Shown piece after piece: positions 2,631 to 27,236 of a stretch of 28,175 nucleotides of DNA. The notes beneath the pieces are model-generated. The model made no database searches. It worked only from the letters and a program-made list of their open reading frames with translations, and was not told the origin of the DNA. The stretch spans positions 1-28,175 of the forward strand of contig JAOZFI010000001.1 of NCBI GenBank assembly GCA_027491395.1, given 5' to 3'. How positions within the stretch are numbered: position 1 is the first letter of the stretch; each line of letters opens with the position of its first letter. The position numbers and the translations under genes were made by a program. Origin of the DNA: Thermoproteota archaeon. GTDB taxonomy: Archaea; Korarchaeota; Korarchaeia; Korarchaeales; Korarchaeaceae.

Positions 2631-3924
2631 TTAGCCCCTCTCGCTCCACTTGGGCATGGGGAACACAGGTTCAGCAGTCGCGAACTCCTCAGGGAATACG
2701 GTATGGTACTTCCCGTCCTCCATCATCTGGACCACTATACCCTGACCGAGAGTGTTCTGGCCGCTGGAGTCGAACTTCACTCCCTTCCATGGCATGATCA
2801 GCTTGTCTCCGGGGATGTTCAGGCTAGCTAGGGCGTCTCTTATCGCCTTACGGAATTCCTCCAAGTTGGCAGGGCTGGCCTTCTTACCGGCCTCCTCCAG
2901 AGCGTAGTAGAGCACCCAAGCGCCGGTGTAGTCCCTAGCGGAGTTACCGTTGAGGTCCACCCCGTACTTTGCCTTGTACCTATCGTTCACCTCCTTCAGC
3001 TTGGGTATCTTCTGGCCGAGGTCCCAGTTGAAGACCTCCCTGCTGAAGATGTAGAACCCGTCCTTGCCCACCTGCTTGACGTAACTTGGGTTTATGAAGC
3101 CAGCATCCTGCGCCAGTATGGCCTTCGGGTTGAAGTCCCTCTGCTTGGCGGTCTGGACGAAGAGTATGGCGTCCTGCACGTAGCTGGCAACCAGCACGAG
3201 GTCAGGGTTGGCTGCCTTCAATGTATCTATCTCGCTGTCCATAGAGGTTATCGTAGCCGCGTGGTAGCTCACTACTTTCACTATCTGGTATCCGGCTTCG
3301 GTGAAGTATTTCTGCCAGGCCCTAGCTGTAGCGGTTCCCCACTCGGTGTCCTCATGTATTATTGCTATCCTCTTTATCTGGTTACCATACTTCTTGTTCA
3401 ACCAGTTCACGAAGTCTACGTGCTGCTTGGCAAACATCTCATCGTGAGGAGTGGTCCTGAAGAACCACTTGTAACCCCTAGCGGTGAGGGTGGGTGATGT
3501 AGACTCGGGGTTGAGCATCGGGACATGGGTACCTCTCACACACCTCGCTCACGGTCTTGGTGACGGCGCTCTGGTAGGAGCCAAGCATAGCAACTACTTT
3601 CTCCTCAGTTATTAGCCTCTCGGCCTCGGCTGCGCCGGTCTCGGGCTTGCCAGCGCTATCTCCAAACACAAGAACGATTTTAGCCCCTCCCAAGCTCTTT
3701 ATGCCGCCAGCCTTGTTTATCTCCTCGACGGCGAACTCCAATCCTCTCTTCAAGTCAGCACCGGTTTCAGCTAGCTTGCCCGACAGAGGGAGCACCACGC
3801 CGACCTTGACCTCCCTGACGGCGCCCCCTCCTCTCTGCATCATCAGAACGGCAACTGCCACGATAATGACAACGATTACAACTATAGCGGCAAGAAGGGA
3901 CTTACTTAAACCCCTTCTCCTCAC
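2631..3924 (-). pseudogene. livK: Liv-type ABC substrate-binding protein split by a single +1 frameshift at ~3527-3529 (real pseudogene or sequencing error)
   Basis: N-half (TM anchor, VKVGVVLPLSG, EINKAGGI, LGSYQSAV...VCERY) joins the C-half (HVPMLNPESTSPTLT...WFFRTTPHD) if one C is removed from TAC-CCAT. Likely GTG start at 3924 with AAAGGTGG SD. Confidence 0.88.
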
Positions 3925-3961
3925 CAATGCGACCACCTTTGATCTAATTGTGTTGGCAGCC

Positions 3962-4056
3962 TTACATATATACCTTTCCATTGAAAGGTAAAAATCTTTG
4001 AAAAATAAACGATTTTGACGACGGTAAAGATTAAAAGTTAGGTAAAGATCTTTGAT
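3962..4056. promoter_or_regulatory. Divergent liv/hyu promoter region with operator-like repeats
   Basis: Minus-strand GGAAAGG-TATATATG (BRE/TATA-like, ~3965-3979). Plus-strand GGTAAAG-ATTAAAAG (~4023-4037). Repeats GGTAAA(A/G)ATCTTTGA at 3987-4001 and 4041-4055. Inverted repeat TACCTTTC-CATT-GAAAGGTA at 3971-3990. Confidence 0.6.
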
Positions 4057-10588: not shown

Positions 10589-11017
10589 ATGCCTTATATG
10601 AAGGTTGGAGATCTCCTGAAGGGGTACGGCTTCATAAGCGTTACCCCCGACAAGACCGTGAGAGAAGCGGCTAAGGTGATGGCGAACAAGGGGATCGGCT
10701 TCTTGGTGGTTGTGGACTCAAGCGACCCCCGAAAGGTGGTGGGGGTCCTCTCTGAGAGGGACATCATCAGGGCCTTGGCCAGCAACAAGGAGGATGCCAA
10801 GGTCGAGGAGCTCATGACCAAGGATGTCGTCACGGTGAAGGACACGGACACCCTCTATAAGGCAGCTAAGCTCATGAGGGAGCACAGAATCAGGCACCTC
10901 GTAGTCGTAAACGGGGACGGCATCCCGGTCGGTGTGCTCAGCATAAGGGATCTGACCTATGAGGAGGGCGCGCTCAAGGCCCTCGCCGAGGAGATAGAGA
11001 ACGAGTTCTCCCCTTGA
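10589..11017 (+). CDS. CBS-domain pair protein
   Basis: Two CBS repeats (VTPDKTVREAAKVM...VGVLSERDI; TLYKAAKLM...IRHLVVV...GVLSIRDL). Start probably ATG 10589 or 10598. Confidence 0.92.
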   Translation: MPYMKVGDLLKGYGFISVTPDKTVREAAKVMANKGIGFLVVVDSSDPRKVVGVLSERDIIRALASNKEDAKVEELMTKDVVTVKDTDTLYKAAKLMREHRIRHLVVVNGDGIPVGVLSIRDLTYEEGALKALAEEIENEFSP

Positions 11018-11474
11018 AGTAGGTGTAATAGAACCAGATCGCATCGTACTGTTGCTGGGTCTCTATAGAGCAAGGCCTCATGGACCTGAGGTGCTCAATG
11101 GCTTCATCAGGTCGCATTCCTTTTGAGACGAAGTAGGCGGCCAGGACGGTGCCGGTCCTCCCGCATCCCGCCAAACAGTGGACCAGCACCTTCTTTCCCT
11201 CTTCAACTTTCTGGTTGATCAGGTCGACTATCTGAGCTAGGAGCTCTACGGGCGGAGCCGAGAAGTTCTCGATGGGAAAGAAATAATGCTCCATTCCCAG
11301 CTCCCTCAATCTCTCGATCACACGCTCGTCATACTCCTCCGACTTCACGAGCGATACCACGACCTTTATTCCCTTATTTGCCAGCCAATCGATCTCCTCC
11401 GGTGAATAGAGAAAAGCGGAGCCGGCCACATGCTCGTCCACGAATGAGAAGTTTCTAGGCTTCCTCAATCTCAC
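10974..11474 (-). CDS. Dual-specificity/protein-tyrosine phosphatase family protein
   Basis: CX5R P-loop VLVHCLAGCGRTGTV, FPIENFSAP loop, RPCSIET..Q. Likely GTG start at 11474 overlapping the upstream TGA. Confidence 0.92.
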   Translation of the reverse strand: MRLRKPRNFSFVDEHVAGSAFLYSPEEIDWLANKGIKVVVSLVKSEEYDERVIERLRELGMEHYFFPIENFSAPPVELLAQIVDLINQKVEEGKKVLVHCLAGCGRTGTVLAAYFVSKGMRPDEAIEHLRSMRPCSIETQQQYDAIWFYYTYFKGRTRSLSPRRGP

Positions 11475-13288
11475 ACCGGCCAAGCCATATGCTTGAACGC
11501 TATAACTCTTAACACGTCTGACGCGTCCTCAACGGCATCTATCATGTTCTCGAAGAGCTCCACGAAGTCCCTCAGGTTCATGAGCTTGACCACATCTATC
11601 TTCACGTGGAGCAACTCCTCCATTGCCTGCTGATGTAATTCATCGAACACCGACTCGAGCGTGTCTATCTCGCTCACGATATCCAATGATGACTCGATGT
11701 CTTCTCTCATGATCTCTATTGCCCTGAAGAGCCTGTTTGAGATCCACTTGGAGACCCTAGCCATCTCCCTCATGAGCTCCCTTATCTTCGGGGGTATATC
11801 TTCTGGATCAAGGGTTCTGAGCCTCCTCGATGCGCCCAAGGCGAAAGAAGCGATCCTGTCCACCCTACCGACGAGCCTAGCGAAGTCTGCTTTGTCTTGG
11901 CCCGAGAGACTGCTGAACCAAAGTTGCCTGTCTATGGCTATCCTGATCTCGTCAGCTTGCCTCTCAAACTCCTTGACCATCTTGAAGCTCCTCTCATCCC
12001 TTACCCCACTTGAGTAATTGCTCACCATGTCGGCGAAGCTCTCTACCGCCTTCACGACCTTTGAAGCGTGATCCACCACCATGTCGTAGGCTGGCCAGAA
12101 GGGCCTCGTCTCCTTCATAAGGAAGATGAGGAAGGATCCAGCGGCCATCATCAGGGCGGTGAGCATGAAGGTACCTCCGAACCCGTAGACCTCGCCCACG
12201 GCCCCCAAGGTCAGGGCACCGGTCATATAGCCGAAGTCCCTGAGCGATGTGTACAGGCCCATTGATCGTCCCCTCACGGTGGGTGGGGCTGCGTCAGCCG
12301 AGATGGCGGGGAGTATAGGGTAGTAGAGGCCCACACCCAACCCTAAGGTGACGGAGGCTAGAGCCAAATATAGGGGATCTCCTAGGGAGTGGAGAAGATA
12401 TATGCTGACAGCCTTGATGGAGAATCCCATGAAGATGGGGATCCTCCTCCCGAAAACATCCGAGATCCTCCCGGAGAACGGCATCAGGAGGGCCCAAGAT
12501 AGAGTGTTCAGACCCTGTATGAAACCAATCTGGGTGGTCCCGAATCCCAAGGAACTCAGGTAGAGGGGTAAGAGCCCCCATATGAGCGCATCAGAGAACT
12601 GAGCTACGTGGCCGAGGAAGTAGGTGAGCCTCAGGGTCCCGCTTCTCAAACACATGGAATACGCTTGGACCGTGGGCATCTCCTCTACTTCTGCTCCCTC
12701 GACCCTCGTTTCGGAGATGCCCACCAAGGAGAGAATAAGAGCTAGGGCCGAGGTGACTAATGTTATGTAGAAGGCATCGGGTATGTTCCTGACTTCGGAC
12801 ACGTAGCCTCCCAAGAATGACCCAGCCGTGTATCCACCGTAAACAGAGGCCTCCATTATACCCAAACTAAGGCCGTGCCTCGCCCTCCCTCCGGCCTCCG
12901 ATAGAACTATCATCACACCGGAATCGACCAACCCCTGACTCCAACCCATCATGAGGGAGGCGGCGGCCACCATCAACAGGTCTCTGCTGTATATGAGCAG
13001 TAAGGTACCGGCGAAGAACATTCCAGCCCCTAAAACGACTGCTACCTTCCTGCCCAGCTTCTCAGACAAGTATCCGGCCAATAGATCAGCCAGACCCTTG
13101 AAGGCTCCGAATGAGAGTATGGGGAGGAGCACGATAAAGAGGTAAGAATAGGTCTGTTGGACGAATCCGCTCACGTACAGCGGGAGAACTGCCCTCTGCA
13201 CACCCATGCCCGCCCCTATTGAGAGGGTGGTCATGGCAGCAGAGACCATTATCCTTCCGGGGTCTCTCCCGCTCAATCCTCGAATCAC
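11471..13288 (-). CDS. MFS transporter fused to a C-terminal DUF47/PhoU-like domain
   Basis: About 390 aa of ~12-TM MFS with motif A twice (GYLSEKLGRK; GRISDVFGRR), then ~210 aa helical soluble domain (EFERQADEIR..I...L, DRIASFA, IDTLESVFDELH, FENMIDAVEDASD) typical of DUF47. Confidence 0.85.
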   Translation of the reverse strand: MIRGLSGRDPGRIMVSAAMTTLSIGAGMGVQRAVLPLYVSGFVQQTYSYLFIVLLPILSFGAFKGLADLLAGYLSEKLGRKVAVVLGAGMFFAGTLLLIYSRDLLMVAAASLMMGWSQGLVDSGVMIVLSEAGGRARHGLSLGIMEASVYGGYTAGSFLGGYVSEVRNIPDAFYITLVTSALALILSLVGISETRVEGAEVEEMPTVQAYSMCLRSGTLRLTYFLGHVAQFSDALIWGLLPLYLSSLGFGTTQIGFIQGLNTLSWALLMPFSGRISDVFGRRIPIFMGFSIKAVSIYLLHSLGDPLYLALASVTLGLGVGLYYPILPAISADAAPPTVRGRSMGLYTSLRDFGYMTGALTLGAVGEVYGFGGTFMLTALMMAAGSFLIFLMKETRPFWPAYDMVVDHASKVVKAVESFADMVSNYSSGVRDERSFKMVKEFERQADEIRIAIDRQLWFSSLSGQDKADFARLVGRVDRIASFALGASRRLRTLDPEDIPPKIRELMREMARVSKWISNRLFRAIEIMREDIESSLDIVSEIDTLESVFDELHQQAMEELLHVKIDVVKLMNLRDFVELFENMIDAVEDASDVLRVIAFKHMAWPV

Positions 13289-13833
13289 CTGAGGGTCTCG
13301 AACTCCTCACTGAGGAACTCGGGTAGAAGGGCGCACACCTCCCTATAAAAATCGACCCGGGAGTTGGCCCTCACGCACTCGCAGAACTGGGGCACCCACT
13401 GGAGCAGATGATCCTCCAAGAAGGATTTAGCCTCGCCCAAGGCCTCTTCCTCGCCTAATAGATAGAGGTAGCGGAGGAATTCGAGCTCCGCTGATATATG
13501 CTCTGGGAGGTCCTTGAACTCGTCGGAAATATCGACGCCGAAGGCCCTCATCCTGTCCTGAACGTCAACGGCTAGGTGGGACATGAGCACCTTTTCCTCG
13601 GTCCTGTACACCGATTCGTAGGGTGGACAGGGGATCTCCTTGCCAAATCTGAAGAGCCTTACGTACTCTTGATTCATTAGGTGGGGATCTTCCACCCTTA
13701 AATCAGCTTGAGGCCACCTCTCCCTAACCTTCTCAAGTAAAGGTTCGATCTCCTTTACCCACTCCTCCGTGGGCCTCATGAACGCTAGGGTGAAGAACTC
13801 GAGTAGCTCGGCACTCTCCTCTCTCTCGCTCAT
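13285..13833 (-). CDS. TorD/DmsD family redox-enzyme maturation chaperone
   Basis: EYVRLF, PPYESVY, LPEHISAELEFL, FLEDHLLQWVPQF signature motifs. Confidence 0.9.
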   Translation of the reverse strand: MSEREESAELLEFFTLAFMRPTEEWVKEIEPLLEKVRERWPQADLRVEDPHLMNQEYVRLFRFGKEIPCPPYESVYRTEEKVLMSHLAVDVQDRMRAFGVDISDEFKDLPEHISAELEFLRYLYLLGEEEALGEAKSFLEDHLLQWVPQFCECVRANSRVDFYREVCALLPEFLSEEFETLR

Positions 13834-13854
13834 AATCTGGGGTGGAAGCCCCCC

Positions 13855-13862
13855 ATATTAAG
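13855..13862 (-). promoter_or_regulatory. TATA box for a probably leaderless torD-MFS-phosphatase transcript
   Basis: CTTAATAT ending ~21 nt before the torD-like ATG (13833). Confidence 0.5.
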
Positions 13863-13863
13863 G

Positions 13864-14250
13864 TTATCTAAGGCAGCCGAGCGGCAGGTATCTCTCGCTG
13901 ACACCCTTTATCTTCCTCAAGGAGCCCTCGAGCTCGAGGATAGTTTGAGAATCCCCCTCGACGAAACTCACGTCAACACACACGCCCTCGGTGTGATGAT
14001 GCGTTCTGGTGACCACGCAGCTCCCGTACCTCTCCAATACTTTGGAGACCAATTCGCTGCTCCTCCCCTCCGATACCACGATCAGCACACCCCTGCACCT
14101 GTGGGGGGTTAGGAGGTGAACCCTATCCTCCATGACCTCCACCAATATACTCTGGATCAGAGATGACCTGCTCATCCCCAGCTTGGAGGATAGCTCATCG
14201 ATCTTCTCCACCAAGTCCTCGGGGAGGGAGATACCGAATCTCCTCTTCAT
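13864..14250 (-). CDS. NikR-like ribbon-helix-helix metal-responsive regulator
   Basis: RHH N-terminus (RFGISLPEDLVEKIDE...SRSSLI); ACT-like C-terminus with THHHTEGVC metal motif. Confidence 0.85.
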   Translation of the reverse strand: MKRRFGISLPEDLVEKIDELSSKLGMSRSSLIQSILVEVMEDRVHLLTPHRCRGVLIVVSEGRSSELVSKVLERYGSCVVTRTHHHTEGVCVDVSFVEGDSQTILELEGSLRKIKGVSERYLPLGCLR

Positions 14251-14256
14251 GCTGCC

Positions 14257-15069
14257 TTACCTTCCCCTTAGCAGGGATATCAGGTAGAATCCCAGCATGA
14301 CGATGCCTATAACCCCCGAAGGTGCCAATCCGGTGGCCACGCTTATCAGCAGGCCCATCAGGCCGCCGGCCAGCGACAGGAGGAACCCGAGTATCACTGC
14401 CACCCTGCCGCTCTTGGCTAGAGCGGACGCGGTTATGCCGGGGAGAAGGACCATTACGTGCTCGACCACGAATCCAACGGACTTCAACAGTCCAACGGTG
14501 GCTATGGCTAAAGAGGCGACCATCATGGCGTCGTAAAGGGAAGCCCTGACCCCCGACAGCCTGACGAAGTCTCTGTCCACCCCTATGAGTATGTGCTCCC
14601 TCAGGAAGGGAACCGTCAGGATCAGAACTATGGCGGAGACGGCGACGGTGAACCATACATCCTCCCAAGTCACGAGCAAGGGATCCCCGATTATGTATGA
14701 CCAGACGCTGGTCTCCATAGGGAAGGCCGTCAGTATGTAGTAGAGGGATATGGTGGTGAGGGACACGCTTATCGAGACGAATATGGCTGTGGCTGAGTCG
14801 GGCCTGACTCCCCTAGATATGAGGAGGGAAACCGTGGACACCAAAATGAGGCTGAAGATAATGGAGCAGATCTCGAACGGGCATCCCAGCAGGTTCATTG
14901 TTATTATGGCGAGGAGGGCCGAGAGAAGAGCAGAATGTGGAAGGGCTCCAGCTAGGAAGAGGAGCCTCCTCGCCACCACCACGGGGCTAAGCACCCCGTA
15001 GACAATAGAGGCGAGGCCCACCACTACGATCCATCTGGGATCCAGCATCAGCTCAAACGGCATAGCCAT
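14257..15069 (-). CDS. Metal (Zn/Mn/Ni/Co) ABC transporter permease (ZnuB-like)
   Basis: VVARRLLFLAGALPHSAL, YIIGDPL, DRDFVRLSGV, VGFVV...LLPG motifs. Confidence 0.88.
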   Translation of the reverse strand: MAMPFELMLDPRWIVVVGLASIVYGVLSPVVVARRLLFLAGALPHSALLSALLAIITMNLLGCPFEICSIIFSLILVSTVSLLISRGVRPDSATAIFVSISVSLTTISLYYILTAFPMETSVWSYIIGDPLLVTWEDVWFTVAVSAIVLILTVPFLREHILIGVDRDFVRLSGVRASLYDAMMVASLAIATVGLLKSVGFVVEHVMVLLPGITASALAKSGRVAVILGFLLSLAGGLMGLLISVATGLAPSGVIGIVMLGFYLISLLRGR

Positions 15070-15823
15070 CCACCACGTGGACGCACTTCTCTACTATGAA
15101 GACGCTCCTCCCGTAAACCTTGCTAAGCAGCTCCTCCTTTATGACCTGATGGGGCGGGCCCATCGCTACTACCCCCCTGTTCACGACCATAATCAGCTTG
15201 GCCCTGTCGAGGAACATGCTTGGGTCGTGGCTGCTCACCATCACCAGCTTAGATGAGGACATCTCCTTGATCATCCTGACCAAGTCAACCCTTCCCATCG
15301 GATCCACTGCAGTGAGGGGCTCGTCCATTATCAGGATGGAGGGATCCCATACCAAGGCCCTAGCTATGAAGACCCTCTGTCTCTGGCCCCCTGATAGCTC
15401 TGACAGCGGTTTGCCTGCTATATCATCGACTCCCATCCTCTTGAGGGCAGACTCTATCCTCCCCCTCTCGTTCTTTGGGAAGGAGAGCCTGGGAGGCCTC
15501 CTTCTCAGGGCTATGGCGGACTCGACTATTTCCCTGACGCTGACCGGGAAGCTGTAATCCTCACCCTTCCACTGGGGGACGTAGCCTATGAGCCTGCCGG
15601 CCCTCTCTGGCTTGCCAGTCACATCCTCTCCGTTGACTAGGACTTTTCCTTTAGCAGGTATCAGTCCTAAGAGCGCCTTGAACAGGGTGGTTTTTCCAGC
15701 GCCATTGGGACCCATTACCACCACTAGACCGGGTCCCTCGAGTCGAAAGTTCTCGTTAGAGAATATCTCCTCATCATCGTAGCTTACCTCGAGTCCCCTC
15801 ACCTCAAGGGTCAGCGCGCTCAT
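15053..15823 (-). CDS. Metal ABC transporter ATP-binding protein (ZnuC-like)
   Basis: GPNGAGKTT, IGYVPQ, LSGGQRQR, LIMDEP, SSHD. Likely ATG at 15823 (MSALTLEV) rather than the GTG at 15862. Confidence 0.92.
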   Translation of the reverse strand: MSALTLEVRGLEVSYDDEEIFSNENFRLEGPGLVVVMGPNGAGKTTLFKALLGLIPAKGKVLVNGEDVTGKPERAGRLIGYVPQWKGEDYSFPVSVREIVESAIALRRRPPRLSFPKNERGRIESALKRMGVDDIAGKPLSELSGGQRQRVFIARALVWDPSILIMDEPLTAVDPMGRVDLVRMIKEMSSSKLVMVSSHDPSMFLDRAKLIMVVNRGVVAMGPPHQVIKEELLSKVYGRSVFIVEKCVHVVDGYAV

Positions 15824-15875
15824 CGTGCACAAATTGGGTATATCAAATATAAAGGAGTGCACAAACTAAAGGGTG
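15824..15875. promoter_or_regulatory. Compact bidirectional promoter with two GTGCACAAA boxes
   Basis: AAATATAAA at 15845-15853 is centred between divergent ATGs at 15823 and 15876. GTGCACAAA at 15825-15833 and 15857-15865. Confidence 0.65.
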
Positions 15876-16838
15876 ATGAGGGCGGGCGCTGTGTTACTGC
15901 TGCTGGCTCTGGCACTGTTGGTTCAATCGTCTGAGGGCTCACCTAGAGGCCTCAATGTGATCGTGACCTTCTCCAACCTGAAGTACGATGTGGATCTCTT
16001 AGCATGCTCCTCCGACAGGGTGGTGTCCCTCGTACCATCCGGAGTCGATCCGCACGACTACGAGCTCAAGCCGGAGGATGTAAACTTGTTAAAGGAGGCA
16101 GACATCGTAGTATCAACAGCTCATGCTCCCTTCGAGAGGCTCATCAGGGAAAAGGTTGCCTCAGGTGAAATAAAAGCGGAGCTAGTGGAGATTCCTAAGC
16201 TAGGACTCAAGATCTTGACGAATCCAGCAACCAAGCAACCTAACTATCACATGCCCATCTACGATCCCGATAACTACCTCAAGTTCATGGGGCGTCTGAG
16301 AGAGATAATGGCTAGAGAGAACCCCGAGTGCGCCTCTCAGTATAAGGAGAGGTACGATCGGATAAGGGAGAGGATCTTAGAGATTAAGATGGAAGCGCCC
16401 CGCTTGAACCTGTCGGCTGTCGCCGTGAGTCCCGTCGCCCAGTACGCGGTCGAATGGGCTGGAGTGAAGGTGAGGTACCTGCTCCTTAAGGAGAGGGGGG
16501 TGCCAGCAACGCCTCCTGAGCTGGCGGAGATCAGGAGGAGGGCTCTTACTGGAGAGATAGGGATCATGTTATTGGTAGGGAATGCGAGGACCCCGCTCAA
16601 TAAGAAGGCTGTGGAAATGGCTGAGGAAATGGGCATACCTTGGATAAACGTCCCATCACCGCTCGAACCAAGGAGCATCATCGAAAAGCTTGAAGACGTG
16701 GTGAGAGCCCTCTCTAACATCGGAGAAGTTAGATCGGCGAGGATGAGATATGGGTATATCCCGCTGATTGTCACAGTGGTTGTGATAATCGCCTCACTGT
16801 CTGCGGCGCTCTACTTGCTGAGGAGGCAACCTAATTAG
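15876..16838 (+). CDS. Metal ABC transporter substrate-binding protein (ZnuA/TroA family) with C-terminal TM anchor
   Basis: Signal peptide; VPSGVDPHDYELKPEDV, NYHMPIYDP, NPECASQYKER; C-terminal TM helix plus RRQPN. Confidence 0.88.
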   Translation: MRAGAVLLLLALALLVQSSEGSPRGLNVIVTFSNLKYDVDLLACSSDRVVSLVPSGVDPHDYELKPEDVNLLKEADIVVSTAHAPFERLIREKVASGEIKAELVEIPKLGLKILTNPATKQPNYHMPIYDPDNYLKFMGRLREIMARENPECASQYKERYDRIRERILEIKMEAPRLNLSAVAVSPVAQYAVEWAGVKVRYLLLKERGVPATPPELAEIRRRALTGEIGIMLLVGNARTPLNKKAVEMAEEMGIPWINVPSPLEPRSIIEKLEDVVRALSNIGEVRSARMRYGYIPLIVTVVVIIASLSAALYLLRRQPN

Positions 16839-22049: not shown

Positions 22050-23362
22050 TCATTTCACCTCGTACTTACTCATGATCTGCTGCCTAGTGAGGAACCCTCT
22101 CTTAGTCAGCCTCCTATACGCTAGCTCAATGGAAGCAAAGGCTAGGACATTAATCCATATCGTGTAGAAAACTCGTTGGTCTGTTCGCCACTGATAATAC
22201 ATTAGGAGGGAGAATATGGCTAAGACCATGACTAGGCTGAAGGCTACGAGGGACTTACTCGCTCTCGTCTCATCGATCAGCCTCAGGTGAGATAGTATGG
22301 CGAAAATGTACACTAGGAGGAATGCCGCACTGCAGATCGCGGCGATCCCCTCTATGTTGAAGAGTAACGCGAAGATAATCCCCAATCCGGCCGTTATGTA
22401 GAGGCCCTCAGGAGCAGAGAACCAAGACCTTCTCTCGAAGACGGGAGGTAGCTCACCCTTTACAGCCAGCGCGTAGGCTATGTTCGCGCCTCCATAGAGG
22501 GTAGCATTTATGGCCGATGAGGTGGAAAAGAGGGCGCCCACTGATATGAATGTGAAACCCAGACTACCCAAGAACGGCTTAGCGGCCTCAGCAAGCGCGT
22601 ACTCCTTAGCCTTTATCAACTCCTCCACTGGCAGATTTCCTACGGCAACCACCGATATGGGCACGTAGACCAATGTCACTATAAGAAGGCTCAAATATAT
22701 TGCCCGAGGGACGTTCTTCTCAGGGTCCTCTATGTCCTCAGACGCGTTAGTTATCAATCCAAAACCAGTGTAGCTCAGGAAGAATATAGTAGCGGCATAC
22801 ACGGCTCCCATGACATGCTTGGAATCAAGCTGGGGTGCTACATAATCGGGATTGATAGTCCACAATCCCCCCCAGAACAAATATCCCAAGGACGAGGAGC
22901 TTACCTAGGACGATGAAGGACTCGGTCCTTCCCACCGTCTTGGATCCGAAGAAATTTAGGGCCACGAAGACCGCTACTACGACGATCTCAACCAACCCAA
23001 ACAGGAATGGGTCTCGAATCCCGATCAGGGCAAGGAGATAACCTGCAAAGGCATCTGAGAACAGGGATAGTGAGACGACGTAACTCATCCACATGAGAAA
23101 GGCCAGAGTTCCAGTAATCTCATTATCTCCTATGCCCCGGAGGATGAACTCTATTGGACCGGCATTGGATATGAATTTCGAGCCCAGCTTGGCGTAATTG
23201 TATGCCACTAGGTAGGCCGCCAGCGAGGATAGGATGAATGCTAGGGGAAGGCTCCTACCCGCTATCTCAGCGCCAACTCCTAGGATAGAGAATATACTAG
23301 CCCCTATTATTATACCAACCGCTATGGAAGTTGCTTCCCGGAACCGATAATTTCCTCTTCAA
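22050..23362 (-). pseudogene. APC-family amino acid permease with two +1 frameshifts (~23344 and ~22867-22873)
   Basis: TTG 23362 MKRKLS / FREATSIAVGIIIGASIFS...AYNYAKLG...GKLLVLGIFVLG / GLWTINP...FLSYTGFGLITNASEDIEDPEKNVPRAI. Each junction is restored by deleting one G. Confidence 0.85.
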
Positions 23363-24415: not shown

Positions 24416-25567
24416 TTATCGCTCCTTGAGGAGCAGGTAGAACAGCGCTACCACAGCTGCCAGCAAGGGTATCAGGAAGACCGTCGTGATCATGTACAGC
24501 TCTGGGAGATTAGCTAGAGTGTTGGCATTTGTCGTGAGCAGCGCCTGCTTGAAGATCTCCGGGAGAGAGTTGACTACCTCTGGCTGAGCCACGAAGTAGG
24601 GGAGCTGGCTGTGCATGTTGAGCATCTCACCCACAAGCACCGTTGCCAAAGCTACGGGTCCGCCTATTTTGGCCCAGCTGATCTGGGTTTCTGTGAGCTC
24701 CCTTGGCCTGAAAACTTGATAGAGGACGATGAACTGAACTAAAACGAGGATCATTTTCACTATAAAGAGCCATCCAAAGTCGATCTCACCGGGCTTTCCT
24801 ATCAGCGACCCGAATATGTTGTAAAACTTGTACGGGGTCGTTATGAGGCTCACCGAGTACCACGCGCCGAAGAACATCATCAGAGCCAAGGAAGCGAAGC
24901 CGTAATTGGCGAACCTGCTCACCAGCTCTAGGTATCTCCCTTTAAGGGAACCCTCGGAGGACTCGTACCTGATGATGTACACGGTCACCATCATGAGGGA
25001 GCCAGCAGCTAGGGCTCCGAAAACGCTCTTCAGGTACAGCGGAAGGAATGTAGGATTCATCAGGGCTTCAACGACATCAAGGTAGGGTTTGGGCTCCAAG
25101 TGAAGCCCAGAAGGAACATTGAGGAATGCGAACACGGCACGGAAGCCGAATGGTATGAGATACCCGGAGAGGGCCATCAGGCCCCCGACGGCTAAGTGGG
25201 TCTGCGGTGGTGACCTGTCCCAAAGGTACCAGTAGAGCACTATAGTCAGGAACCTCAGGGCTATCATCAAAATTGCTAGCCCGAAGGGGACCCAAGTGAG
25301 GTGACCTGCCAGCCCTATGAACTGCGGGTAGAAGCTCAGCAGCATGACGGTAAACGCAGTCCCGAAGACTCCCGCGATGGCATAAGTGCTAGCGTAGTAC
25401 CTCATCAGGATCTTAGCTCTCTCCATTAGGAAGTCGTCGTTCTTCTTCCTAGCGAGCCACTCCATTAGAGGGATGAATGTGGCTATAGCCATGTCCAGAT
25501 TGACAAGGACTATGTGCACACCGAACGATAGAGACAGGAGGGCGGATATCGGTAAGGGAGCCTGCAT
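24416..25567 (-). CDS. CydA'-type second subunit of archaeal cytochrome bd oxidase (CydA paralog replacing CydB)
   Basis: CydA-like fold cues (GVHIVLVNL, YAIAGVFGT, FAFLNVPSG, NPTFLPL, VGEMLN) but degenerate heme/quinol motifs; 6 nt downstream of cydA. Confidence 0.8.
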   Translation of the reverse strand: MQAPLPISALLSLSFGVHIVLVNLDMAIATFIPLMEWLARKKNDDFLMERAKILMRYYASTYAIAGVFGTAFTVMLLSFYPQFIGLAGHLTWVPFGLAILMIALRFLTIVLYWYLWDRSPPQTHLAVGGLMALSGYLIPFGFRAVFAFLNVPSGLHLEPKPYLDVVEALMNPTFLPLYLKSVFGALAAGSLMMVTVYIIRYESSEGSLKGRYLELVSRFANYGFASLALMMFFGAWYSVSLITTPYKFYNIFGSLIGKPGEIDFGWLFIVKMILVLVQFIVLYQVFRPRELTETQISWAKIGGPVALATVLVGEMLNMHSQLPYFVAQPEVVNSLPEIFKQALLTTNANTLANLPELYMITTVFLIPLLAAVVALFYLLLKER

Positions 25568-25573
25568 TACCCA

Positions 25574-27172
25574 TCACCTCCTCCATAGGAACCAGTACAC
25601 AGCCAGCACTAGAACGACTAGTATCAGGCTCAGGTAGAGAGCCACTCCCATCAGCTGCCAAGCAGGTGGGGGATTGATGGTGAGCTCGGTTTGCACATCC
25701 ATTATACCGTAGATGGCCCATGGCTTTCTTCCCATCTCCCTGACCCCCCATCCAAGGAAGCTAGTGATCTGCGCGATGGCAGGAGATATCACAGCTATCC
25801 AGAGGACCCATGAGGGCCATTCCTCTCTTCTGAATGCGTAGAAGACGGCTAGCAGACCTATCAACCCTAAGAGAACGCCCAGTCCTATTTTCGTATAGTA
25901 CAGGTAGTGTATTATCAGGGGTGGCCTGTAATCGATGGTGATCACATCGTAGGACGGAAGCTTTGCATTAGGGTCTCCGTATGCTAGCAAGGGCATGAAC
26001 TGCTCCACTAATTGTTTCATGCCCAGCATGCCTGGTAGGCTGGTTATCTGAGTGGTAGTGGCCTCCATGGCCGCGAACTTCTCCGGATTGTACTTGGCCA
26101 CGGCGGCGCCCATGGCATGGCCAGACCCGGTTCCCTGAATGGCTATCAAGATCAAGGCCACCGCGGCGGCGAACTTTATGGCCCTCAGAAAGTACCCCCT
26201 ATCCCTGTCATCCTTGGACGTCTTGAGAAGCCTCAGGGCATAACCACCCAGTAGGGTGAATGCAGACACGGTGAGTGCAGCGCCCAAGGCATGGACGTAT
26301 GTGGCTAGGTATCCCTTGGAGAGGAAGGTTATCATGAATGTTCCAGCATTCTTCACCGTGTTCGCCACTATGGCATCGATCACAGTCTTTAGGGACACGG
26401 ATGAGAGGGACTGCAAGGCTTCGGGCTTGATGACGGCCGCAAGTGTGCTCTCACCTATCGTCTTACCGGCGAAGGCCTCTCTCATGAGCACCCTGACCAA
26501 GCCTGAGGGGAGAGTAACTGTTACCTGCTCTGGAGTGGCACTGATGACCTTGGCGCCTACAGCCGCCAGCTTATTCACATCCAAGGCTTGGGCTATCTGA
26601 GCTGGCACGAATAGGAGGACATCCGGAGGTGCCCAACTGGAAGGACCTGCTAATGGATCGTAGTGGGCTATCACGTTGACTGGAGCCTGCATGAAGGAGT
26701 TAACGCTTAGTATCATAGCTCCTGAGTACCAAGCACCCACGAAGGCCAGTATACCTATGATGAGGTGCGTCCTCGGGGACACCTTGTCCTCTGCATAGAA
26801 GTACATGTAGATGAAGATCCCCTCCATGAGAAAAGCGAATATCTCCATGTACAACGGGAAGTATATGTACCTACCCGCTGCCTCCGTCAAGTTAGGCCAC
26901 AACAGGACTAGTCCAAATTCAGAGGCGGTTCCCGTGGCGGCTCCCACTGCGAAGACCGCCACGAAGGCCTTCGCCAAGGTTCTCGAGAGTCTCTTCCAAT
27001 CATCATTACGAGTCCTTAGCCATATAGCCTCAGTGACCACTGCTAGAAAAGACAAACCCAGCACGTACTGCAGGATGAACCAGTGAACCTCTATACCTAT
27101 CATTGAGAGCAGTCTTTCCCAGCCAGCCGGGTAACCAGAAAACCACTGCTGAATCAAGCCGAAGGGGTCCAT
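25574..27172 (-). CDS. cydA: Cytochrome bd quinol oxidase subunit I
   Basis: EVHWF (H19), FAVGAATG, EIFAFLME (E99/E107), NSFMQAP, YVHA (H186), PEKFAAME (K252/E257), GWGVREMGRKPW (E445); E. coli numbering. Confidence 0.93.
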   Translation of the reverse strand: MDPFGLIQQWFSGYPAGWERLLSMIGIEVHWFILQYVLGLSFLAVVTEAIWLRTRNDDWKRLSRTLAKAFVAVFAVGAATGTASEFGLVLLWPNLTEAAGRYIYFPLYMEIFAFLMEGIFIYMYFYAEDKVSPRTHLIIGILAFVGAWYSGAMILSVNSFMQAPVNVIAHYDPLAGPSSWAPPDVLLFVPAQIAQALDVNKLAAVGAKVISATPEQVTVTLPSGLVRVLMREAFAGKTIGESTLAAVIKPEALQSLSSVSLKTVIDAIVANTVKNAGTFMITFLSKGYLATYVHALGAALTVSAFTLLGGYALRLLKTSKDDRDRGYFLRAIKFAAAVALILIAIQGTGSGHAMGAAVAKYNPEKFAAMEATTTQITSLPGMLGMKQLVEQFMPLLAYGDPNAKLPSYDVITIDYRPPLIIHYLYYTKIGLGVLLGLIGLLAVFYAFRREEWPSWVLWIAVISPAIAQITSFLGWGVREMGRKPWAIYGIMDVQTELTINPPPAWQLMGVALYLSLILVVLVLAVYWFLWRR

Positions 27173-27203: not shown

Positions 27204-27236
27204 GAATTTAAAACTATTGGTTAGACATATTAACCA
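27204..27236 (-). promoter_or_regulatory. cydAA' TATA box with adjacent inverted repeat
   Basis: TTTTAAATTC (minus, 27204-27213); TGGTTA-N7-TAACCA at 27218-27236; embedded in an AT-rich tract. Confidence 0.5.

Follow-up and report, generated by a model that had tools for sequence, protein, structure and literature searches.

The locus described here raises the question of whether three genes that are joined by overlapping stop and start codons, and that lie behind a possible promoter, must also form one physiological system. The genes are located on the minus strand of a 28,175-nucleotide stretch from a Thermoproteota archaeon of the family Korarchaeaceae (contig JAOZFI010000001.1). The whole stretch is called the window in the following; it is contig C54 of the genome G000, which comprises 1.72 Mb in 62 contigs. 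The first gene encodes a chaperone of the TorD/DmsD/NarJ family, a redox enzyme maturation protein (REMP; PF02613, 182 aa, 13285..13833). The second encodes a fusion protein of 605 aa (11471-13288), in which a permease of the major facilitator superfamily (MFS) is joined to a DUF47/PhoU_div domain, and the third a Cys-based protein tyrosine phosphatase (PTP)/dual-specificity phosphatase (10974-11483, 169 aa, or 10974..11474, 166 aa from a GTG start). An earlier note on this DNA had proposed these identities, all of which were confirmed by Pfam, and had combined the three genes into one integrated module for an oxyanion such as arsenate or phosphate. The comparison with related genomes leads to a different answer. 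The trio appears to be the labile tail of a genus-specific operon with the order znuC-znuB-nikR-torD-(MFS-DUF47)-PTP and to carry three functions rather than to be one system, a reading to which we assign a probability of about 0.6.

Conservation and loss of the three genes

The two overlaps are present exactly as the earlier note had described them. On the minus strand, a GTGA at 13288-13285 places the TGA stop codon of torD within the GTG start codon of the MFS gene, and a second GTGA at 11474-11471 places the stop codon of the MFS gene within the GTG start codon of the phosphatase gene. For the phosphatase, the start at GTG 11474 is favoured over TTG 11483 because of the N-termini of the orthologues, which have the consensus M-[RK]-x-P-R-N-F-S. 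The trio is physically coupled and probably co-transcribed. It is not an isolated operon, because nikR, znuB and znuC continue upstream on the same strand, so that six genes form one run on the minus strand.

Conserved synteny of the three genes, on which the idea of one module depends, was searched in 43 genomes of the phylum, 21 of which belong to the genus of the window (g1), and the flanks of the loci were inspected. The order TorD-MFS-PTP is limited to part of this genus, namely to G000, G026, G021, G016, G029 and G025. G020 also has this order, but its torD frame is shifted by a 2-bp deletion. Two genomes, G022 and G019, have nikR-MFS-PTP and lack TorD. The genome G017 has nikR and TorD, followed by about 430 bp that are left over from the DUF47-encoding end of the MFS gene and riddled with stops, and then by the PTP gene. 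Yet another arrangement is found in G023, which has MFS-PTP at a separate site, while its znuC-znuB-nikR run leads into an unrelated convergent gene and lacks a PTP gene there.

In eight further genomes of the genus (G014, G015, G018, G028, G030, G031, G032 and G033) znuB, nikR and the PTP gene are directly adjacent, and both TorD and MFS are missing. These eight genomes form one clade in the phosphatase tree (support 100/99), which is nested among MFS-bearing lineages. The simplest reading of their arrangement, with the rooting within the genus left open by the tree, is a single deletion. Each gene of the trio is lost or broken in some genome while the others remain. Because loss and decay have occurred independently for each gene, the trio represents three separate histories and not one conserved unit.

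The MFS-DUF47 fusion protein

The permease domain comprises residues 1 to ~392 with 12 transmembrane helices (12113..13288, minus strand; PF07690, MFS_1, 127.5 bits), and the DUF47/PhoU_div domain residues ~401-605 with six helices (11474..12088, minus strand; PF01865). The PhoU_div match has a score of 78.7 bits at a cut-off of 24.4 and covers residues 402-597, and the DUF47 part matches the PhoU-like protein of PDB entry 3L39 with an E value of 1.8e-6. An AlphaFold (AF2) model based on an alignment of 18 sequences (predicted local distance difference test 88.8, predicted template modelling score 0.82) has 12 transmembrane helices plus six long helices, the latter within residues 401-600, from H401-426 to H566-600. 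The linker between transmembrane helix 12 and the DUF47 domain has a length of 10 residues and is invariant (ETRPFWPAY region, with E393, T394, P396 and W398). The DUF47 part contains further invariant acidic columns, i.e., E442, D446, D453, E545, D549, E580, D584, D588 and D591, which we take to resemble the E/DxxxD motifs of PhoU proteins.

The fusion shares the domain family, the six-helix fold and the conserved acidic motifs with PitR/DUF47 proteins and with Na/Pi cotransporters that carry PhoU domains. According to excerpts of PMC13170248, PitR is a single PhoU_div protein that regulates phosphate homeostasis together with its cognate importer, each family of accessory regulators is tied to its own family of phosphate importers, and Na_Pi_cotransporters with PhoU domains are on record, which gives a precedent for a PhoU-type domain on an importer. 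In contrast to PitR/DUF47, the domain is here fused to an MFS permease, the genome contains no PHO4 partner, and no phosphate-transport gene is present near the fusion in the 23 loci that were scanned. By analogy with PhoU-Pst, PitR-PitA and the PhoU-domain Na/Pi cotransporters, the cytoplasmic, PitR/PhoU-like six-helix domain on transmembrane helix 12 would sense cytosolic phosphate (or a metal-phosphate), and the fused domain would thereby gate its own permease according to the phosphate status of the cytosol. The best guess for the substrate is phosphate or a phosphate-containing anion.

A Foldseek search with the model retrieved only generic MFS proteins, headed by OxlT, NorA, VMAT and YajR, with target-normalised template modelling scores of 0.75-0.85 to OxlT, NorA and VMAT, and the matches listed include no MFS for phosphate or organophosphates. 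Escherichia coli YajR (PDB 3WDO, Foldseek rank 15) likewise combines a 12-helix MFS permease with a C-terminal soluble domain, but it has no sequence relation to the fusion beyond the MFS fold. Its extra domain is a small alpha/beta domain, unlike the PhoU-like helical bundle. The 16 NCBIfam matches of the fusion are all sub-threshold and belong to efflux or other MFS models. There is no arsenic-related model among these 16 matches or in the single NCBIfam match of the phosphatase, whereby the presence of an ArsJ model in NCBIfam was not checked.

The fusion occurs in 20 of the 43 genomes of the phylum, which all belong to one family: 10/21 in the genus of the window including G000, 4/5 in g2, 1/1 in g3, 4/4 in g4, and 1/5 in g5. 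A profile-free exhaustive search of 1.84 billion representative sequences yielded 51 proteins at E <=1e-30, and about 30 of the best 150 representatives are full-length fusions of 590-690 aa with 23-52% identity. The ESM Atlas contains a 64-member archaeal cluster in which PhoU_div and MFS_1 are present on 100% of the members. A scan of species-representative genomes led to 37 fusion loci, which include Thermofilaceae, Methanodesulfokora, Odin-, Baldr-, Heimdall-, Hod-, Hermod- and Thorarchaeota, and records labelled 'Promethearchaeota'. A full-text literature search for a link of DUF47/PhoU_div with an MFS fusion retrieved no report. MFS-DUF47 is an uncharacterised archaeal family of Thermoproteota-type and Asgard archaea, and the novelty of the trio's gene content is confined to this architecture.

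Outside of the genus the fusion does not travel with the other genes of the locus. A relative of TorD, PTP, NikR, ZnuB or the CBS protein was found by tblastn (E <=0.01) within 3 kb in 0 of 28 fusion loci from outside the genus, and among 78 flanking open reading frames (ORFs) of 23 loci there is no match to PF02613, to PTP families or to families of phosphate transport. No recurrent functional partner was found in other genera and phyla; the neighbours are a creatininase, an HtrA-like protease, a CCG/Fer4 protein, an M24 peptidase and PolB. Some local arrangements do recur. In eight Asgard loci (L113, L115, L116, L119, L120, L122, L124 and L125) a conserved ORF of 327-345 aa is located on the same strand about 1-1.5 kb upstream of the fusion; it belongs to no Pfam family in these Heimdall-, Hod-, Hermod- and Thor-type records. 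The Asgard fusion gene is often directly followed by a gene for a family B DNA polymerase. In three loci of the Methanodesulfokora-type genus g4 (L022, L023 and L025) the 3' end of an upstream ORF (227-248 aa) extends into the start of the fusion gene; this ORF has weak, sub-threshold matches to TIM-barrel Pfam families in L025 only (E ~2e-4), and in the g4 loci a convergent creatininase-family gene is located downstream of the fusion.

Two possible complementarities of the fusion with other genes were considered and rejected. A replacement of Pit by MFS-DUF47 does not lead to a clean pattern: PHO4 is missing from g1, g3 and g4, where 15 of 26 genomes carry the fusion, but g2 has both (PHO4 in 5/5, the fusion in 4/5). 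Ordinary gene pairs of Pit and DUF47 are present in other genera of the phylum. A weak PhoU_div match in proteins of about 400 aa had seemed to mark the fusion-free genomes. This is an artefact of sub-threshold scoring, because the 396-aa protein of G014 has a 60%-identical orthologue in G000.

The phosphatase

The phosphatase has Pfam scores of 76.5 bits for PTP-SAK and 56.8 bits for DSPc, and its P-loop of the type HCX5R(S/T) is present (HCLAGCGRTG, VHCLAGCGRTGT). Its relatives of known structure are ShufPTP (3.6e-23), Tk-PTP (2.8e-21), DUSP23 and SsoPTP. With Tk-PTP (5Z5A/5Z59/5Z5B), SsoPTP (2I6I) and the engineered ShufPTP (9E9L) it can be aligned over nearly the full length with E values from 3.6e-23 to 4e-12, and the HCX5R(T) motif is shared. 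Orthologues are found in 35 of the 43 genomes. Judged from its sequence, it is a conserved, ordinary archaeal PTP of the Tk-PTP/SsoPTP type. No model for low-molecular-weight PTPs (ArsC-type) is among its nine Pfam matches. In the proposed operon it would have remained just that, a conserved housekeeping PTP of archaea, which in sister genomes is the last gene after nikR.

The protein differs from the archaeal PTPs in one residue and in its gene context, as its gene follows the MFS gene. The Asp that serves as general acid is absent, and the segment PIENF (window 11255-11269, minus strand, residues ~70-74) corresponds to PIPDF of Tk-PTP, with Asn at the position of the Asp and a Glu preceding it. 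This Glu, one residue before the changed position, may take over as acid. Besides the fusion transporter, the altered general-acid residue of the phosphatases that follow it is the only unusual point of the locus.

The TorD-family chaperone and Psr-type reductases

The chaperone clearly belongs to its family (PF02613, Nitrate_red_del; 88.9 bits at a cut-off of 22.2, profile positions 19-136 of 136). It stays below the cut-offs of all NCBIfam equivalog models that it matches, i.e., TorD (64.4/132), DmsD (50.7/162) and the type II DMSO-reductase chaperone (49.2/152.3). The best match in the PDB is 2O9X, a 'reductase assembly protein'. A search of the whole genome with PF02613 identified the window TorD as the only match, in this case with 89.5 bits. 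In the TorD tree, which was calculated without the frameshifted fragment of G020 (L042), the window type forms a separate long-stemmed clade of seven rows with a support of 100/99. Other TorD paralogues of the phylum are encoded within about 3 kb of PF00384 genes and have 212-231 aa, so that the window protein with its 182 aa is about 40 residues shorter than these paralogues linked to molybdenum enzymes. It differs from known TorD/DmsD/NarJ REMPs in this shorter length, in its own clade, in the scores below every equivalog cut-off, and in the location of its gene within an operon with a metal transporter and nikR, away from a client operon. It agrees with them in the clear family match, in the presence of PsrABC-like enzymes, probably of the Tat type, and of TatC in the genome, and in the co-occurrence within the genus.

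The earlier note had stated that no gene of the DMSO-reductase family lies in the window, and indeed PF00384 is absent from all 29 window ORFs that were searched with Pfam. The torD gene is therefore neither in nor beside a client operon. The genome has four PF00384 matches, all outside of the window, on the contigs C52, C43, C28 and C32. Two of the proteins are a Fdh-alpha-like protein of 644 aa and an FDH-N-like protein of 1207 aa. Enzymes of about 1200 and 650 aa also occur in genomes without any TorD, e.g., G023 and G014, and therefore do not need it. The other two are PsrA-like; their genes lie at contig ends, one on C32 and one on C28, and in both cases genes for a 4Fe-4S subunit and for the membrane subunit NrfD come next. 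The C28 copy (L082, 10624-12042, minus strand) has an in-frame TAG between the Molybdopterin and the Molydop_binding parts, and its orthologue in G026 is open.

G017 has an intact orthologue of 838 aa, with 74% identity to the C32 copy in a comparison of 470 residues. The N-terminus of this orthologue, MNMIKMTRREFVK, has a twin-arginine leader with the motif TRREFVK. No chaperone gene adjoins it, and the sole PF02613 gene of G017 is of the window type. The gene order A-B-C, the Molybdopterin and Molydop_binding domains, the 4Fe-4S and NrfD subunits, and the twin-arginine leader in G017 are shared with PsrABC/PhsABC, and PhsA is the best NCBIfam model. The score for PhsA is 381.7 bits and remains below the cut-off of 694, and both copies of the window genome are cut by contig ends, one of them with the TAG, which sets them apart from the known enzymes. 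ArrA is matched with only 135.7 bits at a cut-off of 1600. The enzyme therefore scores as a sulfur-compound reductase type and not as an arsenate reductase, and with a score below the PhsA cut-off a substrate is not assignable.

Within the genus, TorD of the window type and Psr-type genes occur together. The chaperone is present in eight of the 21 genomes, and in seven of these NrfD is above the cut-off (G000, G016, G017, G020, G021, G026 and G029). The remaining one, G025, contains a PsrA-like pseudogene that is interrupted by six stops. Among the 13 genomes that lack this TorD, NrfD is above the cut-off in none (G033 has a sub-threshold score of 19.8 bits). In addition, decay is shared: in G020, the genome with the frameshift in torD, the Psr operon is in pieces, with psrA split among three ORFs, shortened psrB and psrC genes, and TAA and TGA stops. 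Based on co-occurrence and joint decay, TorD most likely serves a molybdo- or tungsto-enzyme that is encoded elsewhere. From the claim of the earlier note that TorD matures a distant oxyanion reductase, the distant client has been retained, and this client scores as PhsA-like and not as ArrA-like. Similarly, the predicted co-occurrence with molybdenum enzymes holds for TorD with NrfD/PsrA-like genes, but not for MFS-DUF47 and the phosphatase, which show no such tie.

According to excerpts of PMC4464133, some torD/dmsD subgroups go with operons that contain nrfD, and torAC is missing for about two thirds of the sequences annotated as 'TorD'. In the proposed mechanism, TorD would hold the twin-arginine leader of the PsrA/PhsA-like reductases, which are encoded on contigs other than that of torD and have a molybdenum or tungsten bis-pyranopterin guanine dinucleotide (bisPGD) cofactor, up to the insertion of this cofactor, and the mature enzyme would then be exported by the twin-arginine translocation (Tat) system. 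A predicted complex of the TorD of G017 with residues 1-60 of its PsrA reached scores of 0.30 and 0.14, at a mark of 0.34, and is weighed neither for nor against this mechanism. An orthology of the window TorD with the TorDs of genus g2 that are encoded beside PsrA is unsupported by the tree.

Alternative explanations

Several observations weigh against three separate functions. Wherever genes of the trio adjoin, the stop/start overlaps are retained, which fits co-translation and could stem from a functional tie among them. The PTP gene directly follows the MFS gene, with the overlap, in all ten genomes of the genus that have the MFS gene, including G023, where the two are located away from znuCB-nikR. 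At the general-acid position these ten MFS-linked PTPs have N (7), V (1), G (1) or E (1), i.e., nine of ten are non-acidic, an unexplained correlation that hints at a co-evolution of MFS and PTP. The generic MFS fold of the model gives no clue to a substrate, and a canonical two-repeat PhoU is present in the window genome. With respect to TorD, the window clade is not a sister of the TorDs adjoining the closest PsrA orthologues, those of genus g2. The N-termini of the PsrA proteins in the window genome lie beyond the contig ends, and no Tat leader is seen there. In G021 and G029 PsrA was not found, only PsrC at contig edges. Finally, the genomes behind the co-occurrence of TorD and Psr are related and thus not independent of each other.

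Part of these observations would be accounted for if MFS-DUF47 and PTP were a two-gene pair for phosphate homeostasis, in which the PhoU-like domain gates the flux and TorD is a passenger. General-acid-less Cys phosphatases cleave phosphoanhydrides, and the target of the PTP with the altered acid would be either the transporter or a compound whose leaving group is a good one, namely polyphosphate, pyrophosphate or another phosphoanhydride. Not only the strict adjacency fits such a pair. The general-acid position is D or E in all eight nikR-PTP genomes and in G017, and D in most other genera, and the N, V and G variants are located on different branches of the PTP tree. Moreover, PHO4 (PF01384), the Pit family, is found in 0 of the 21 genomes of the genus, including G000. 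However, a PTP gene is a neighbour in none of the 28 fusion loci outside of the genus, and PTP orthologues are present in 35 of 43 genomes regardless of MFS. The Glu one residue before the changed position is conserved except in G023 and could serve as the acid. G025 has the MFS gene and keeps E, as does G017, which has lost the MFS gene, and the whole pattern may be plain phylogeny, as the genomes are related. Taken together, we regard the pair as unlikely.

A second alternative concerns the chaperone, which could act like YcdY on a client without molybdenum, e.g., in the metal loading of a product of the NikR/Znu locus, possibly of the acidic DUF47 domain. The torD gene lies 30 bp after the gene for the NikR-like regulator, next to a ZnuABC-type transporter, and overlaps the start of MFS-DUF47. 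The reduced length (182 versus 212-231 aa) and the separate long-stemmed clade would also fit a deviating function, and according to an excerpt of PMC4464133 the partner of E. coli YcdY is YcdX, a zinc-binding phosphatase/hydrolase, and no complex iron-sulfur molybdoenzyme is known for YcdY. The distribution argues for a different partner, because TorD tracks Psr/NrfD and not MFS: G022 and G019 have MFS without TorD, and G017 has TorD without MFS. Together with the joint decay of TorD and Psr in G020 and the fact that the NCBIfam matches are TorD, DmsD and the type II DMSO-reductase chaperone, this makes a YcdY-like role quite improbable.

The module of the earlier note, in which TorD would mature a distant oxyanion (arsenate) reductase, a phosphate-gated MFS permease would transport the substrate or product of this enzyme and the phosphatase would hydrolyse an arseno- or phospho-ester, can refer to overlapping genes behind a possible promoter, to the existence of a distant bisPGD enzyme and to the tie of the DUF47 family to phosphate importers in excerpts of PMC13170248, but it is hardly credible in view of the separate loss or decay of each gene in sister genomes, the scores of the reductase (PhsA 381.7 versus ArrA 135.7 bits), the lack of an arsenic model among the matches of the MFS, a PTP of the archaeal protein-phosphatase type with no LMW-PTP (ArsC-type) Pfam model listed, and the 28 other loci in which the MFS family is without such neighbours.

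The operon and its surroundings

Upstream of the trio, the operon starts with the gene for a metal ABC transporter ATPase (ZnuC/MntA-like, 15053..15862, minus strand; PF00005, 98.2 bits), which matches the NCBIfam model MntA with 146 bits, below the cut-off. It is followed by the gene for a metal ABC transporter permease (ABC-3/ZnuB-like, 14257..15069, minus strand; PF00950, 94.7 bits) and by that for a NikR-like regulator (13864..14250, minus strand), which consists of a ribbon-helix-helix domain (PF01402, 28.7 bits) and a NikR_C metal-binding domain (PF08753, 26.2 bits) and reaches 29-36 bits, below the cut-off, with the NikR models of NCBIfam. The gaps or overlaps among these three genes are at most 6 bp. 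A gene for a ZnuA-family metal-binding protein is divergently oriented (15873..16838, plus strand; PF01297, 58.6 bits), and at the other end of the run a CBS-pair gene converges on the end of the phosphatase gene.

The largest gap within the six-gene run, 30 bp between nikR and torD, contains the TATA-like box CTTAATAT (13855..13862, minus strand), which is centred about 25 nt 5' of the ATG of torD. The earlier note had regarded it as the trio's own promoter. The box is indeed present, but the motif TTAATAT is found in the window twice versus 1.53 expected, a number that is reached in 49 of 100 shuffles and is thus not above chance, and the trio forms only the last part of a longer run. In G025 and G017, whose orthologues are ~63% identical, an AT-rich box is found equally far from the start codon of torD. 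Where nikR and the phosphatase gene are directly adjacent, the gap comprises 3-15 bp and lacks such a box. An internal promoter that gives rise to a leaderless mRNA is plausible, judging from position and sequence.

In the interval from the TATA-like box to the start codon of torD there is a short inverted repeat, TGGGG-N8-CCCCA (13838-13855, minus strand), which is retained in close relatives, in some with single mismatches, and is absent from G025 and G017. It could be an operator for the adjoining NikR-like regulator, or be due to chance. The other TTAATAT of the window (27227-27233, minus strand) lies about 55-60 nt 5' of a gene for a cytochrome bd subunit I-like protein (25574-27172), which is followed by a weaker CydA-like ORF (24416-25567).

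Elsewhere in the window two genes are split. The gene for a LivJ-type periplasmic binding protein (2631-3981, minus strand) consists of two overlapping ORFs, of which 3478-3981 corresponds to positions 1-90 of the Peripla_BP_6 profile and 2631-3539 to positions 91-315, and it is likely a frameshift or a pseudogene. An amino-acid permease gene (22050-23208, minus strand) is likewise split into two overlapping ORFs, with 22825-23208 matching positions 47-165 of its profile and 22050-22889 positions 181-420.

Conclusions

Genes with overlapping stop and start codons behind one promoter need not be one system, and for the trio described here it was the comparison of 43 genomes that separated the genes from one another. 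An orphan TorD that tracks Psr-type reductases aids the annotation of the respiratory capacity of uncultured Korarchaeota-like archaea from hot springs. It is conceivable, though doubtful, that MFS-DUF47 is a fourth, archaeal class of self-regulated transporter for phosphate or a phosphate-containing anion, with its own sensor of the PitR/PhoU type, which in a genus without Pit is paired with a PTP that lacks the general-acid Asp and may cleave phosphoanhydrides. If this were true, it would be a compact pair for phosphate homeostasis, and the transporter class would have members in Korarchaeia and Thermofilaceae as well as in Asgard archaea. An MFS permease with a fused PitR/PhoU-like domain would be a simple model, in a single polypeptide, for the PhoU-type gating of transporters.

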